32,000 nt of DNA from Pseudomonas aeruginosa. Its GTDB lineage: Bacteria > Pseudomonadota > Gammaproteobacteria > Pseudomonadales > Pseudomonadaceae. This document shows, piece by piece, positions 9,280-29,614 of this stretch (positions are counted from its first letter, which is position 1; every line of letters begins with the position of its first letter). A program made the translations under genes and the position numbers. The notes below the pieces were generated by a model. It searched no databases. It was not told the origin of the DNA and worked only from the letters and a program-made list of their open reading frames with translations. Where the stretch lies: contig NZ_LN831024.1 in the NCBI RefSeq assembly GCF_001457615.1, positions 5,850,001 to 5,882,000 of the forward strand, given 5' to 3'.

Positions 9280-9355
<76 letters not shown>

Positions 9356-25443: not shown

Positions 25444-27351
25444 GTGATGTATCGACTACCGGTCATTGTTGGTTTCGGTGGCTACAACGCAGCAGGCCGT
25501 AGTTCCTTCCACCACGGCTTCCGCCGCATGGTCATCGAATCGATGGACCCGCAGGCGCGCCAGGAAACCCTAGCCGGCCTGGCGGTCATGATGAAACTGG
25601 TCAAGGCCGAAGGCGGCCGCTACCTGGCCGAAGACGGCACGCCGCTGTCCCCGGAGGACATCGAGCGGCGCTACGCCGAACGCATCTTCGCCTCTACCCT
25701 GGTGCGACGCATCGAACCGCAGTACCTCGACCCGGATGCAGTCCACTGGCACAAGGTCCTCGAGCTGTCCCCTGCCGAAGGCCAGGCGCTGACCTTCAAG
25801 GCCTCGCCCAAGCAACTGCCCGAGCCGCTGCCGGCCAACTGGACGATCGCTCCCGCGGAGGACGGCGAGGTGCTGGTGAGCATCCACGAGCGCTGCGAGT
25901 TCAAGGTGGACAGCTACCGTGCGCTGACGGTGAAGTCCGCCGGCCAGTTGCCCACCGGTTTCGAACCGGGCGAGCTGTACAACTCGCGCTTCCACCCGCG
26001 CGGCCTGCAGATGTCGGTGGTCGCCGCGACCGACGCGATCCGCTCCACCGGCATCGACTGGAAGACCATCGTCGACAACGTCCAGCCCGACGAGATCGCG
26101 GTATTCTCCGGCAGCATCATGAGCCAGCTCGACGACAACGGTTTCGGCGGCCTGATGCAATCCCGCCTGAAGGGCCACCGGGTCTCGGCCAAGCAACTGC
26201 CGCTGGGCTTCAACAGCATGCCCACCGATTTCATCAATGCCTACGTGCTCGGCAGCGTCGGCATGACCGGCAGCATCACAGGCGCCTGCGCCACCTTCCT
26301 CTACAACCTGCAGAAGGGTATCGACGTCATCACCAGCGGCCAGGCCCGGGTGGTCATCGTCGGCAACAGCGAGGCGCCGATCCTGCCGGAGTGCATCGAG
26401 GGCTACAGCGCCATGGGCGCACTGGCCACCGAAGAAGGCCTGCGCCTGATCGAAGGCCGCGACGACGTGGACTTCCGCCGCGCCAGCCGGCCTTTCGGCG
26501 AGAACTGCGGCTTCACCCTGGCCGAGTCCAGCCAATACGTAGTGCTGATGGACGACGAACTGGCCCTGCGCCTGGGCGCGGATATCCACGGCGCGGTAAC
26601 CGACGTGTTCATCAACGCCGACGGTTTCAAGAAGTCCATCTCCGCCCCCGGCCCGGGCAACTACCTGACGGTAGCCAAGGCGGTGGCCAGCGCGGTGCAG
26701 ATCGTCGGCCTGGACACCGTGCGCCACGCCAGCTTCGTCCACGCCCACGGCTCCAGCACGCCGGCCAACCGGGTCACCGAATCGGAAATCCTCGACCGCG
26801 TGGCCAGCGCCTTCGGCATCGACGGCTGGCCGGTCACCGCGGTGAAGGCCTACGTCGGCCACTCCCTGGCCACCGCCAGCGCCGATCAACTGATTTCCGC
26901 CCTGGGCACCTTCAAGTACGGCATCCTCCCTGGGATCAAGACCATCGACAAGGTCGCCGACGACGTCCACCAGCAGCGCCTGAGCATCTCCAATCGCGAC
27001 ATGCGCCAGGACAAGCCGCTGGAGGTGTGCTTCATCAACTCCAAGGGCTTCGGCGGCAACAACGCCAGCGGCGTGGTGCTGTCGCCGCGAATCGCCGAGA
27101 AGATGCTGCGCAAGCGCCATGGCCAAGCGGCCTTCGCCGCCTACGTCGAGAAGCGCGAGCAGACCCGCGCCGCCGCCCGCGCCTACGACCAGCGCGCGCT
27201 GCAGGGCGACCTGGAGATCATCTACAACTTCGGCCAGGACCTGATCGACGAACACGCCATCGAGGTCAGCGCCGAACAGGTGACGGTGCCCGGCTTCAGC
27301 CAGCCGCTGGTATACAAGAAGGACGCGCGTTTCAGTGACATGCTCGACTGA
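25444..27351 (+). CDS. fabY: FabY-type beta-ketoacyl-ACP synthase (initiating KAS of P. aeruginosa)
   Basis: 635-aa ORF from GTG 25444 (the ATG at 25447 is an alternative start), with AAGGAG at 25431-25436. It has a KAS I/II-like fold with active-site Cys in GSITGACATF and His motifs HAHGSSTP and VGHSL. Position matches PA5174. Confidence 0.88.
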   Translation: MMYRLPVIVGFGGYNAAGRSSFHHGFRRMVIESMDPQARQETLAGLAVMMKLVKAEGGRYLAEDGTPLSPEDIERRYAERIFASTLVRRIEPQYLDPDAVHWHKVLELSPAEGQALTFKASPKQLPEPLPANWTIAPAEDGEVLVSIHERCEFKVDSYRALTVKSAGQLPTGFEPGELYNSRFHPRGLQMSVVAATDAIRSTGIDWKTIVDNVQPDEIAVFSGSIMSQLDDNGFGGLMQSRLKGHRVSAKQLPLGFNSMPTDFINAYVLGSVGMTGSITGACATFLYNLQKGIDVITSGQARVVIVGNSEAPILPECIEGYSAMGALATEEGLRLIEGRDDVDFRRASRPFGENCGFTLAESSQYVVLMDDELALRLGADIHGAVTDVFINADGFKKSISAPGPGNYLTVAKAVASAVQIVGLDTVRHASFVHAHGSSTPANRVTESEILDRVASAFGIDGWPVTAVKAYVGHSLATASADQLISALGTFKYGILPGIKTIDKVADDVHQQRLSISNRDMRQDKPLEVCFINSKGFGGNNASGVVLSPRIAEKMLRKRHGQAAFAAYVEKREQTRAAARAYDQRALQGDLEIIYNFGQDLIDEHAIEVSAEQVTVPGFSQPLVYKKDARFSDMLD

Positions 27352-27366
27352 GCGCCACCACAACGG

Positions 27367-27393
27367 AAAAGGCCCGGCTAGACCGGGCCTTTT
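27367..27393. terminator. Bidirectional intrinsic terminator after fabY
   Basis: aaaa-ggcccgg (27371-27377), loop ctaga, ccgggcc (27383-27389)-tttt. It is A/T-flanked on both sides. Confidence 0.8.
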
Positions 27394-27440
27394 CGTTTCA
27401 GTGCAGCGCGCGCCAGTTGGATCAGCTCGCTGCGCCACTC
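27394..27440. repeat. Direct repeat copy A: orphan copy of the cysQ 3' end (attL-like)
   Basis: The 47-nt cgtttcagtgcagcgcgcgccagttggatcagctcgctgcgccactc is identical to 28789-28837 except for one GC dinucleotide unit. Confidence 0.9.
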
Positions 27441-27473
27441 GGCGAGCCTATCTGGATGCGCTGGATCAGGTGA

Positions 27474-27671
27474 TGGCCAGTTCCAGCGTTTCACCGACAG
27501 CCGCTGGAAGTTCACGGGTACGATGCCGATCTGGACTTCCAGCGTCTCATGGAGGAACAAACAGCGACGAGGTTCCTGGCGGAACTGAAAAAGCACCGAT
27601 CGGCCAATTTTGACATCAAGCTCCACGGTGAAGCTCCCATTGAGTTATCAGGCACTGGATATCCGTTCTGA
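27474..27671 (+). pseudogene. 3' remnant (65 codons) of a colicin M-like lipid II-degrading bacteriocin gene, truncated at the islet boundary
   Basis: My own translation is WPVPAFHRQPLEVHGYDADLDFQRLMEEQTATRFLAELKKHRSANFDIKLHGEAPIELSGTGYPF*. There is no start codon, and an in-frame stop lies at 27471. By eye it aligns with the recalled colicin M C-terminus ...DDKYDFNASTHRGIIGESLTRLGAMFSGKEYQILLPGEIHIKESGKR. The alignment is supported by YD-x5-[H/Q]R, TR 8-9 residues later, and [Y/F]xIxLxGExxIxxSG near the end. Confidence 0.5.
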
Positions 27672-27681
27672 TAGCCCCTCG

Positions 27682-27710
27682 AAACACCTATTTATTGACA
27701 GGTGTTTTCT
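27682..27710 (+). terminator. Hairpin terminator for the remnant gene, overlapping the 3' end of the convergent membrane-protein gene
   Basis: aaacacct (27682-27689) pairs with aggtgttt (27700-27707), with a 10-nt loop, followed by tct. Confidence 0.5.
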
Positions 27711-28389
27711 CATCGCTGGAGGAAAGCACATAGTAAAAAAATACGAACCCCAGCCATAGGGGAAGCATTGCCTCATAATCCCCACTGAAAAAAGAGCAGG
27801 CAAACCCTACCAGCCAAACCGCAAGAAGAATTCCACTCAACACCTGTGTGGTCTTACTGCGAAATATCAGTCCTCCAGAGGTACTACGCCAACCTATAAT
27901 CAGCAACGGCAGGAGCATAAAACAGACGGCAAAAGCGACCGCACAAGAGACAAACCAGGCAACTACTATATTGTCCCTCCACGTTGGATACAGCATTCTA
28001 TCCAGACTTAAAGAGGTTGCTAAAACTTCTGAAAGCACAATGGAAACTGGAGTCGCCAAATAGAGAAAAACCAAAAGCACACGACTTCTCCTCACGACTA
28101 CCGGAGATGGCAGAAAGAATATAGCGAGCGCCAAAATAAGCGCACAAATCGAATACCGCTCCAGATAGATCTTATCGGTAAGCTGCCGGAACAACTCGTC
28201 TTGAAATTTCTCTTCAGCGGTCAGTCTTGAAGCATAGTCATTCATATTCTCAGGATAGATATCTGCCAACACCTCAGAGCTTTTCAAAACATCCATACCC
28301 AGCGAAGCTGAGAATAGATAAATCGATACGCTCGCCATCACAGCCGCAGCTAAAACACGAAAACGATAGATCGATGGATATGTTGGCAT
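27688..28389 (-). CDS. Integral membrane protein with 6 predicted TM helices and no recognisable family; candidate orphan bacteriocin immunity protein
   Basis: ATG at 28389 (MPTYPSIYRFR...) is preceded by GGGAGGG. The listed TTG start at 28404 is less likely. 233 aa. I count six hydrophobic segments, with Arg/Lys-rich loops (RFR, RRSR, RSTSGGLIFRSK) on alternate sides and a ~50-aa acidic loop after TM1. GC is clearly lower than the flanks. It is convergent with the ColM-like remnant. Confidence 0.75.
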   Translation of the reverse strand: MPTYPSIYRFRVLAAAVMASVSIYLFSASLGMDVLKSSEVLADIYPENMNDYASRLTAEEKFQDELFRQLTDKIYLERYSICALILALAIFFLPSPVVVRRSRVLLVFLYLATPVSIVLSEVLATSLSLDRMLYPTWRDNIVVAWFVSCAVAFAVCFMLLPLLIIGWRSTSGGLIFRSKTTQVLSGILLAVWLVGFACSFFSGDYEAMLPLWLGFVFFYYVLSSSDEKTPVNK

Positions 28390-28716
28390 AGCGCCCTCCC
28401 GCAAACGCGAGAACTCTACGCTCTACATGCTCTCCCCGTGTGCGATTACGATGGAGTTTTCATGGAGCCCATGATCCTCCCCAGGCTTCGGAAAAAATCA
28501 CACAGGAACTTACTCAGGCGCCACCCCTATCGGCACCGGCCGACAGCTCAACGAAAAGCCCCGCTCATACGGTCATGCCGTTCACCAAAGTGAATATTTG
28601 ATGAGCCACTACCGAATCCCGCTGTCAGTCATCTGCTGCGGGCTATTTGCATGTTTTCTGTCAGCCCGAGCGGGCAAAACATCGTAATCTCCCATAGAGA
28701 CCAGAAAACAGATCAG

Positions 28717-28755
28717 AAAAACGCCGCGCCCCCATTGGGGTGCGGCGTTTTTCTT
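28717..28755. terminator. Bidirectional intrinsic terminator supplied by the islet; now terminates cysQ
   Basis: 12-bp stem acgccgcgcccc (28721-28732) / ggggtgcggcgt (28737-28748), with a 4-nt loop. It is flanked by aaaa upstream and tttttctt downstream. Confidence 0.8.
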
Positions 28756-28788
28756 AAGTAAACAGCATTAGGGTTCGACCAGCTCTTC

Positions 28789-28837
28789 CGTTTCAGTGCA
28801 GCGCGCGCGCCAGTTGGATCAGCTCGCTGCGCCACTC
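28789..28837. repeat. Direct repeat copy B: functional cysQ 3' end (attR-like)
   Basis: This 49-nt copy of 27394-27440 carries (GC)5 at 28801-28810, versus (GC)4 at 27406-27413 in copy A. It includes the cysQ stop codon (28793-28795). Confidence 0.9.
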
Positions 28838-29614
28838 AGCAGCGCGCGGCAGGGCCAGGAAGGAGCCGTTGAGGTAGTCCTCGCGCGGCTCGTAGGTGAA
28901 TGGCGCGCCATGCAGGTCGAGCACCTCGCCGCCGGCGCCTTCCAGCACACCCTGGGCGGCGGCCGTGTCCCATTGCGAGGTTGGCGTCAGGCGCGGATAG
29001 CAGTCGGCAGCGCCCTCGGCCAGCAGGCAGAACTTCAGCGAACTGCCGATGCTGGCTCGCCGCAGGTCGCCGAAGCGCTCGCTCAAGCCATCCAGCAGGC
29101 GCTCCTGGGCCGGGCTGCCATGGCGCTTGCTGGCCACCACGGTGAAGGCCTCCTCGGGCTCCAGGCGCACACTGATCGGTTGCGCGCGGCCATCGGCCTC
29201 CTCGCGCCAGGCACCGAGACCGGCGCCACCGTAGTAGCAGCGGCCGCTCACCGGCACGCCGACCAGACCGAACAGCACCCGGCCATCCTCGACCAGGGCC
29301 ACGTTGACGGTGAACTCCTCGCTACCGGAGATGAACTCCTTGGTGCCGTCCAGCGGGTCCACCAGCCACCAGCGCCGCCAGTGGCCGCGCTCGCTCAGCG
29401 GTATCTCGCAATCCTCTTCGGAAAGCACCGGAATGTCCGGCGCCAGCGCCCGCAACCCCGCCTCCAATATATGGTGCGCGGACAGGTCGGCGGCGGTAAC
29501 CGGCGATTCGTCGGCCTTCGAGCGCACCGCCACGTCGGCGCGCCAGTGCGGCAGGATCGCCTCGCCGGCGCGCCGCACCAGCGCCACCAATTCGCCCCAG
29601 GGCACCGGCCTCAT
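28793..29614 (-). CDS. cysQ: 3'(2'),5'-bisphosphate nucleotidase
   Basis: Start at ATG 29614 (MRPVPWGELVALVRRAGEAIL...), overlapping the nudE stop (ATGA). 273 aa. IMPase-family motifs WLVDPLDGT and SLKFCLLAEG are present. The 5' extension of the listed 395-aa ORF overlaps nudE out of frame. Confidence 0.9.
   Translation of the reverse strand: MRPVPWGELVALVRRAGEAILPHWRADVAVRSKADESPVTAADLSAHHILEAGLRALAPDIPVLSEEDCEIPLSERGHWRRWWLVDPLDGTKEFISGSEEFTVNVALVEDGRVLFGLVGVPVSGRCYYGGAGLGAWREEADGRAQPISVRLEPEEAFTVVASKRHGSPAQERLLDGLSERFGDLRRASIGSSLKFCLLAEGAADCYPRLTPTSQWDTAAAQGVLEGAGGEVLDLHGAPFTYEPREDYLNGSFLALPRAAEWRSELIQLARALH

Follow-up and report, generated by a model that had tools for sequence, protein, structure and literature searches.

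The window analysed here (32,000 nucleotides of Pseudomonas aeruginosa DNA) carries an intact membrane-protein gene lying tail-to-tail with a broken colicin M-like toxin gene, and the question raised by this locus is what the protein does and why it has outlived its neighbor. The gene order is arc operon genes (ornithine carbamoyltransferase and carbamate kinase), a PA5174-type beta-ketoacyl synthase gene (25444..27351, + strand), a low-GC islet containing both genes, and cysQ (28793..29614, - strand). A single tRNA gene, tRNA-Thr (TGT) at 9280-9355, was the sole Rfam match in the window.

The membrane-protein gene was read from the sequence as a 233-amino acid open reading frame (ORF) on the reverse strand (27688..28389) beginning at an ATG. 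The longest ORF over the gene begins at a TTG at 28404 and encodes 238 amino acids. A Shine-Dalgarno sequence, GGGAGGG, was read directly at 28394..28400 (- strand), 4 nt 5' of the ATG, and a sequence scan upstream of the gene found no sigma-70 consensus promoter. The GC content was 0.45 for the gene and 0.65 for the window. The protein contained no His residues and no EExxxR motif. Public annotation calls it a 'hypothetical protein' throughout, and neither Pfam nor NCBIfam has a model for it.

Kyte-Doolittle hydropathy at a threshold of 1.6 gave five strong transmembrane (TM) segments: residues 12-30, 81-99, 104-122, 147-165, and 183-201. A sixth segment (about 206-224), rich in aromatic residues, fell below the threshold and was assigned by eye and from the AlphaFold2 model. 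The short loops rich in Lys and Arg (RFR, RRSR, and RSTSGGLIFRSK) were all on one side. Residues 31-80, an acidic segment with a net charge of -5 and a pI of 4.4, were on the opposite side, as was the loop at 123-146. AlphaFold2 reached a pLDDT of 53 with a P. aeruginosa-only alignment and of 69, a moderate confidence, when distant relatives were in the alignment; the latter model contained six long helices and a long helix leading from the acidic segment into or out of TM2. Hydropathy, charge distribution, and the predicted model fit six TM helices with both termini in the cytoplasm. These predictions agree with the initial annotation, made from the letters of the sequence, which had described six helices in an N-in/C-in orientation with an acidic periplasmic loop of about 50 residues after TM1. 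Its description of an intact membrane-protein ORF with a GGGAGGG Shine-Dalgarno sequence, no His, lower GC content, and no CPBP/Abi motifs was likewise confirmed. The CPBP/Abi intramembrane proteases (PF02517) were rejected as a family for this protein: there was no Pfam match to them at E<=10, and the His count was zero.

Scans of the protein and its distant relatives against Pfam, NCBIfam, and PADLOC gave no meaningful family match; the best Pfam score for the protein, to DUF6773 (E 0.21), was a chance match. A Foldseek comparison of the AlphaFold2 model with the PDB matched no solved fold (best E 1.4, TM score at most 0.27). MraY, an enzyme that handles undecaprenyl phosphate, was the lone match of a profile search against the PDB (E 0.13), spanning the hydrophobic helices, and was treated as compositional noise.

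Close homologues (>70% identity) were found in P. aeruginosa only and formed two allele groups. Group A, which includes the window protein, contained 233-amino acid proteins 96-100% identical to one another. Group B proteins were 232 amino acids long from the equivalent ATG and 75-76% identical to group A. The window protein aligned with three such proteins (P0004, P0023, and P0028) at 75-76% identity and 100% coverage (E 7.6e-108), and the genes for P0004 and P0023 adjoin intact 342-amino acid PF14859 genes. In one genome (L001) and seven further genomes the group B gene sits, as in the window, between cysQ and PA5174, and in all but one of these eight genomes its tail-to-tail neighbor is an intact 342-amino acid Colicin_M (PF14859) gene. 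The look-up of CysQ described below added two further loci with an intact toxin and a linked immunity gene (L032 and L036).

The group B partner toxin is 342 amino acids long with a mass of 39.0 kDa and carries the catalytic motif DxYDx5QR with Gln at position 300 (Q300). Pyocin M4 (PaeM4) has been published with 342 amino acids, 39 kDa, and Gln300 (PMC5626474; PMC5821083, Table 1), and the match in size, mass, and Q300 within DxYDx5QR identifies the partner toxin as PaeM4. Section 3.1.3 of PMC8469651 and the relevant parts of PMC5821083 describe PmiC as a 232-amino acid protein with six TM helices encoded downstream of paeM4 on the opposite strand. The same passages report that it confers PaeM4 immunity and give its occurrence as P. 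aeruginosa only. The name PmiC has been in use since 2018 (PMC5821083, Table 1 and section 9; PMC8469651, section 3.1.3), and the Methods of a population survey (bioRxiv 10.64898/2026.03.03.709350) take pmiC of strain BL03 (Q057_04090) as the reference sequence when M4 immunity is scored by BLAST, beside a separate orphan-immunity scan. In the seventh further genome (L016), paeM4 is split by an IS element (L016 5249-7466) encoding a 431-amino acid DDE_Tnp_1 transposase; this insertion is a second way of orphaning pmiC, independent of the first and recent.

The window protein shares with PmiC the homology to the neighbor of paeM4, the size and six TM helices, and the convergent position. Homology, shared site, and the match to published PmiC thus make the window gene a pmiC allele rather than an immunity gene of an unrecognised type. 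The initial annotation had proposed an orphan immunity gene against a lipid II-targeting bacteriocin and had called its type unrecognised. Homology, synteny, and selection strongly support the first half of this proposal, namely that the gene would be an immunity gene for a lipid II-degrading ColM-type bacteriocin retained after toxin loss; the second half is refuted, as the six-helix, ~232-amino acid immunity partner of pyocin M4 had already been named PmiC. The association with ColM-like genes implied by that proposal was found in many genomes, where the 76%-identical allele is convergent with an intact 342-amino acid Colicin_M toxin gene at the same locus. The dead ColM-like gene itself, also named in the initial annotation, is real.

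What is left of paeM4 in the window comprises codons 270-342 only (27475..27671, + strand), as delimited by DNA alignment to the intact locus L001 and by tblastn. Its end is 16 nt from the pmiC stop, compared with 17 nt at the intact locus, where the two genes are also tail-to-tail. In tblastn, PaeM4 residues 270-289 and 293-339 aligned to the window at 81-85% amino acid identity (E 3e-25). The remnant peptide alone did not reach the threshold of Pfam Colicin_M, and its identity as paeM4 follows from the alignment to PaeM4. A 1,059-bp deletion, whose endpoints share GGCCA microhomology, took out codons 1-269 of paeM4 together with its promoter region and joined the left islet end (27445..27474) to the remnant. 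A second, frameshifting deletion of 25 nt at about 27517/27518 takes the first Asp of the DxYDx5QR motif. The two remnant pieces were also found by tblastn in nine other orphan loci, and a 321-bp probe of the deletion junction aligned end-to-end at 97.5-100% in 9/9 of them. Since all nine carry the same junction, the toxin was lost once, in the common ancestor of the orphan loci examined. A search with PaeM4 in 5.8 billion protein clusters returned one PaeM4 cluster (99% identical), and none of the matches was an intact toxin of the ~80% variant represented by the remnant; that variant, the orphan's own, apparently persists only as remnants of the kind seen in the window. Antisense to the remnant runs an 82-amino acid ORF (27378-27626, - strand) whose last residues are the duplicated C-terminal peptide of CysQ, AEWRSELIQLARA. 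This ORF is annotated in other genomes as a hypothetical protein of 76-83 amino acids (e.g., L002 5764-5994) and is almost certainly an artefact.

Compared with the empty site, the islet extends over 27445..28785 and is flanked by a direct duplication of ~50 bp of the cysQ 3' end. According to blastn self-matches and comparison with an empty-site locus (L028), the left copy (27391..27444) is non-functional and has a 2-nt shorter GC run, and the right copy (28786..28840, - strand) is the functional 3' end of cysQ. The duplication resembles that of an att site, yet the islet encodes no integrase. The intact paeM4-pmiC islet is 2.4 kb long and likewise occupies the cysQ 3' end. At ~28717-28753 the islet carries a GC-rich hairpin with a T-run behind it (AAAAACGCCGCGCCCCCATTGGGGTGCGGCGTTTTTC); the hairpin now lies downstream of cysQ and stands between cysQ and pmiC, two genes of the same strand. 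Beside PA5174, the original bidirectional terminator is still in place (27367-27395).

Among genomes with identical CysQ, the PA5174/cysQ junction is a three-state polymorphism. The empty site, in which cysQ and PA5174 are 46 bp apart, was found at four loci (L028, L030, L034, and L035), the orphan pmiC state at four listed loci and 12 similar ones, and the intact paeM4-pmiC state at two listed loci and three similar ones. These genomes were those returned by a look-up of the window's own CysQ and form a biased sample, in which orphan pmiC was the commonest state. The HxuC-positive strain PAO1, reported to be sensitive to PaeM4, also has the site empty. The orphan and intact haplotypes were 78-86% identical in nucleotide sequence over 27445-28500 and 98-100% identical in the rest of the islet and the flanks. 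Sliding identity placed this boundary within the right part of the islet, upstream of pmiC (28390..28785), in which 28401-28500 was diverged and 28501-28785 (285 bp) was 98-99% conserved. Confinement of the divergence to the block of toxin remnant and pmiC suggests that a cassette of toxin C-terminus plus immunity gene may have been exchanged or replaced, or may have co-diversified, within a conserved islet frame.

The coding sequence of the orphan bears the mark of selection. Between the orphan and toxin-linked alleles dS was 0.48 and dN 0.126 (omega 0.26). The window and L017 represent orphan sublineages with the same deletion junction; their pmiC genes differ by 14 synonymous and seven non-synonymous changes, giving an omega of 0.15 (binomial p=4e-5 against neutrality). 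Because these sublineages share the deletion, the omega of 0.15 between them indicates that orphan pmiC was still under purifying selection after the death of the toxin. The exact window protein was present on at least 999 contigs, with the orphan context in all those read. Some P. aeruginosa assemblies carry disrupted orphan copies (P0002, P0003, P0038, and P0020), with C-terminal frameshifts or with products of 96 and 61 amino acids; these are either occasional losses of the orphan or assembly errors. The simplest reason for the continued constraint would be protection against the extant PaeM4 of competitors.

The best explanation of the locus, and one we regard as probable, is that the window gene is an orphan allele of the PaeM4 inner-membrane immunity gene pmiC that was kept after deletion of its toxin and still protects its bearer. 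ColM-family toxins cross the outer membrane via a TonB-dependent receptor and hydrolyse lipid II on the periplasmic side of the inner membrane. Ghequire and Ozturk (2018, AEM 84:e00716-18) are reported to have presented PmiC as the PaeM4 immunity partner, and the title of their paper names HxuC for PaeM4. In the window's lineage the single 1,059-bp deletion took the toxin promoter and 269 codons and left pmiC intact. In the proposed mechanism, PmiC would be inserted in the inner membrane with cytoplasmic N and C termini, exposing to the periplasm its acidic helical segment 31-80 and the loop LDRMLYPTWxDN (129-140). The PaeM4 ColM domain has a pI of 9.0 vs. 4.4 for segment 31-80, and the exposed segments may keep the basic catalytic domain away from lipid II. 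A strain that does not make the toxin would thereby be protected from PaeM4 released by competing strains. The LDRMLYPTWxDN loop is the same in both alleles and, in the distant relatives, is the best-conserved stretch longer than a few residues. The most economical model is that PmiC blocks the catalytic domain directly, at the membrane surface; shielding of the substrate is the alternative.

Homology, synteny, toxin decay, and purifying selection are shown by the sequences, and PaeM4 immunity through PmiC comes from the literature; protection by the 76%-identical window allele, and its mode, are what we infer. The window allele differs from the characterised PmiC type at 24% of residues, and its own toxin remnant is a diverged variant too (81-85% identity). 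As the remnant variant is diverged and has no intact version in the 5.8 billion clusters, the specificity of the window allele might not include extant PaeM4.

Relatives outside P. aeruginosa bear on the origin of the family. When 1.84 billion representatives were searched exhaustively with HMMER, three distant PmiC relatives emerged, with E-values including 1.7e-5 and 4.9e-4, and a profile search added more, for a range of 21-41% identity, in other Pseudomonas. Those at 21-30% identity were from P. rubra, Pseudomonas sp. GD04058, Pseudomonas sp. SBB6, and a MAG. The PmiC group and the distant group were aligned by hhalign over 203 columns with 98.7% probability (E 4e-16). At the three such loci examined (P0039, P0040, and P0045; L020 5001-5705, L021 5001-5660, and L023 4001-4657, from P. 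rubra, Pseudomonas sp. GD04058, and the MAG), the homologue is a native-GC gene in a conserved housekeeping neighborhood, between a Na+/H+ exchanger gene and dapC-glnD-map, with no ColM gene or trace nearby and no space for one. The 41%-identical relative (P0037; L018 6001-6711) has 47% GC in a 56%-GC genome and lies in an accessory-looking region beside genes for a PhdYeFM-type antitoxin, a BrxR-like protein, and a Peptidase_M78/UvrD helicase; no ColM remnant was detected near it. These distant but genuine homologues qualify the literature statement that PmiC occurs in P. aeruginosa only, a modestly new point. A tentative proposal, which we consider rather doubtful, is that PmiC is a mobilised, low-GC offshoot of a small six-TM family that is vertically inherited without a toxin partner in P. 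rubra, Pseudomonas sp. GD04058, and Pseudomonas sp. SBB6. If that family natively handles lipid II or undecaprenyl phosphate, PaeM4 immunity may amount to shielding or sequestering of the substrate rather than binding of the toxin, which would also explain the conservation of a 24%-diverged orphan whose toxin variant is no longer found.

Three other readings were weighed against retained, still effective PaeM4 immunity. The window protein could be a PmiC-family member specific for its own extinct or unsampled PaeM4 variant, giving no protection against extant PaeM4 and kept through past or rare encounters or by hitch-hiking. The single, diverged remnant-pmiC block between near-identical flanks has the pattern of co-diversified toxin-immunity cassettes, and the occurrence of only one PaeM4 cluster in the protein collection points the same way. 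Purifying selection nevertheless persisted after toxin loss, and the orphan allele is very common. The periplasmic motif and most TM residues are the same in both alleles, with mostly conservative substitutions between them, and membrane immunity proteins of the PmiA type have been reported to be promiscuous (PMC5358913; PMC8469651). With these points against it, this strict specificity is unlikely. The place of the distant homologues at a conserved chromosomal site, with native GC and away from any ColM gene, is what one would see if the primary role were a housekeeping one in the inner membrane, possibly in envelope or lipid-carrier handling, with PaeM4 immunity a side effect or recent recruitment and the orphan kept for its housekeeping. 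In P. aeruginosa, however, pmiC is accessory and low in GC, empty-site genomes with identical CysQ exist, and outside the orphan state the gene is toxin-linked at every locus examined, so that a housekeeping role is needless as an explanation; we consider it improbable.

A decaying leftover with no function, or a protein with some other task (phage exclusion or CPBP/Abi-type proteolysis, for example), is very improbable. The disrupted copies in some strains and the lack of an upstream promoter consensus are what such a reading would draw on. It is opposed by the full-length ORF on those 999 or more contigs at an omega of 0.15 and by the PADLOC, Pfam (including CPBP), and NCBIfam scans, in which the protein, with neither His nor EExxxR, had no match.

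Retained PaeM4 immunity would have practical weight. PaeM4, in development as an anti-Pseudomonas protein antibiotic, killed 53/100 clinical isolates (PMC5626474). The widespread orphan allele is the most likely genetic marker of pre-existing PaeM4 resistance and, being the commonest locus state in the biased sample, should enter genome-based prediction of pyocin M4 susceptibility. The locus is also a clean case, found in nature, of a toxin lost and its immunity kept: one ancient deletion was followed by continued purifying selection, and another strain (L016) adds an IS-mediated toxin knockout of independent origin. The pmiC family is already known and is not a new protein type, and its distant chromosomal relatives are a small lead.

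Among known immunity systems, PmiA, which gives immunity to PaeM1, PflM, and PsyM, resembles the window protein as an integral inner-membrane protein directed against a ColM-type lipid II hydrolase, with no soluble toxin-binding domain evident. PmiA is ~137-142 amino acids long, with a signal-like TM helix plus three TM helices and a semiconserved periplasmic motif, and is encoded on the toxin's strand, whereas the window PmiC has 233 amino acids and six TM helices and is encoded on the opposite strand. The closest ColM relative of PaeM4 (P0047, from Pseudomonas sp. NFX224) has a 140-amino acid, same-strand partner that is PmiA-like in size and position. BLASTP gave no alignment between the window PmiC and this putative PmiA-like partner, which was assigned by size and position only. 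The comparison with PmiA drawn in the initial annotation therefore holds for role alone and not for size, number of TM helices, strand, or similarity to that partner. Cmi (PF13995), the colicin M immunity protein of Escherichia coli, counters the same enzymatic activity on the periplasmic side of the inner membrane, and its gene likewise converges with that of its toxin. It is a 117-amino acid periplasmic protein with a single N-terminal anchor, and the window PmiC has no Pfam match to it.

The orphan immunity genes of S-type pyocins and colicins are alike in being kept without a functional toxin, with a remnant alongside, and in the expectation that they protect non-producers. Those orphans mostly encode small soluble binders of nuclease domains, unlike the window PmiC, a predicted polytopic membrane protein directed against a lipid II-degrading toxin. 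The nearest known system is PmiC of BL03. The window allele differs from it at ~24% of residues and by a one-residue indel in a cytoplasmic loop, and its partner toxin is reduced to 73 frameshifted codons. The two nonetheless share the species, the PA5174/cysQ site, the convergent position relative to paeM4, a length within one residue, the six-helix layout, the periplasmic motif LDRMLYPTWxDN, and the GDY/GEY turn.
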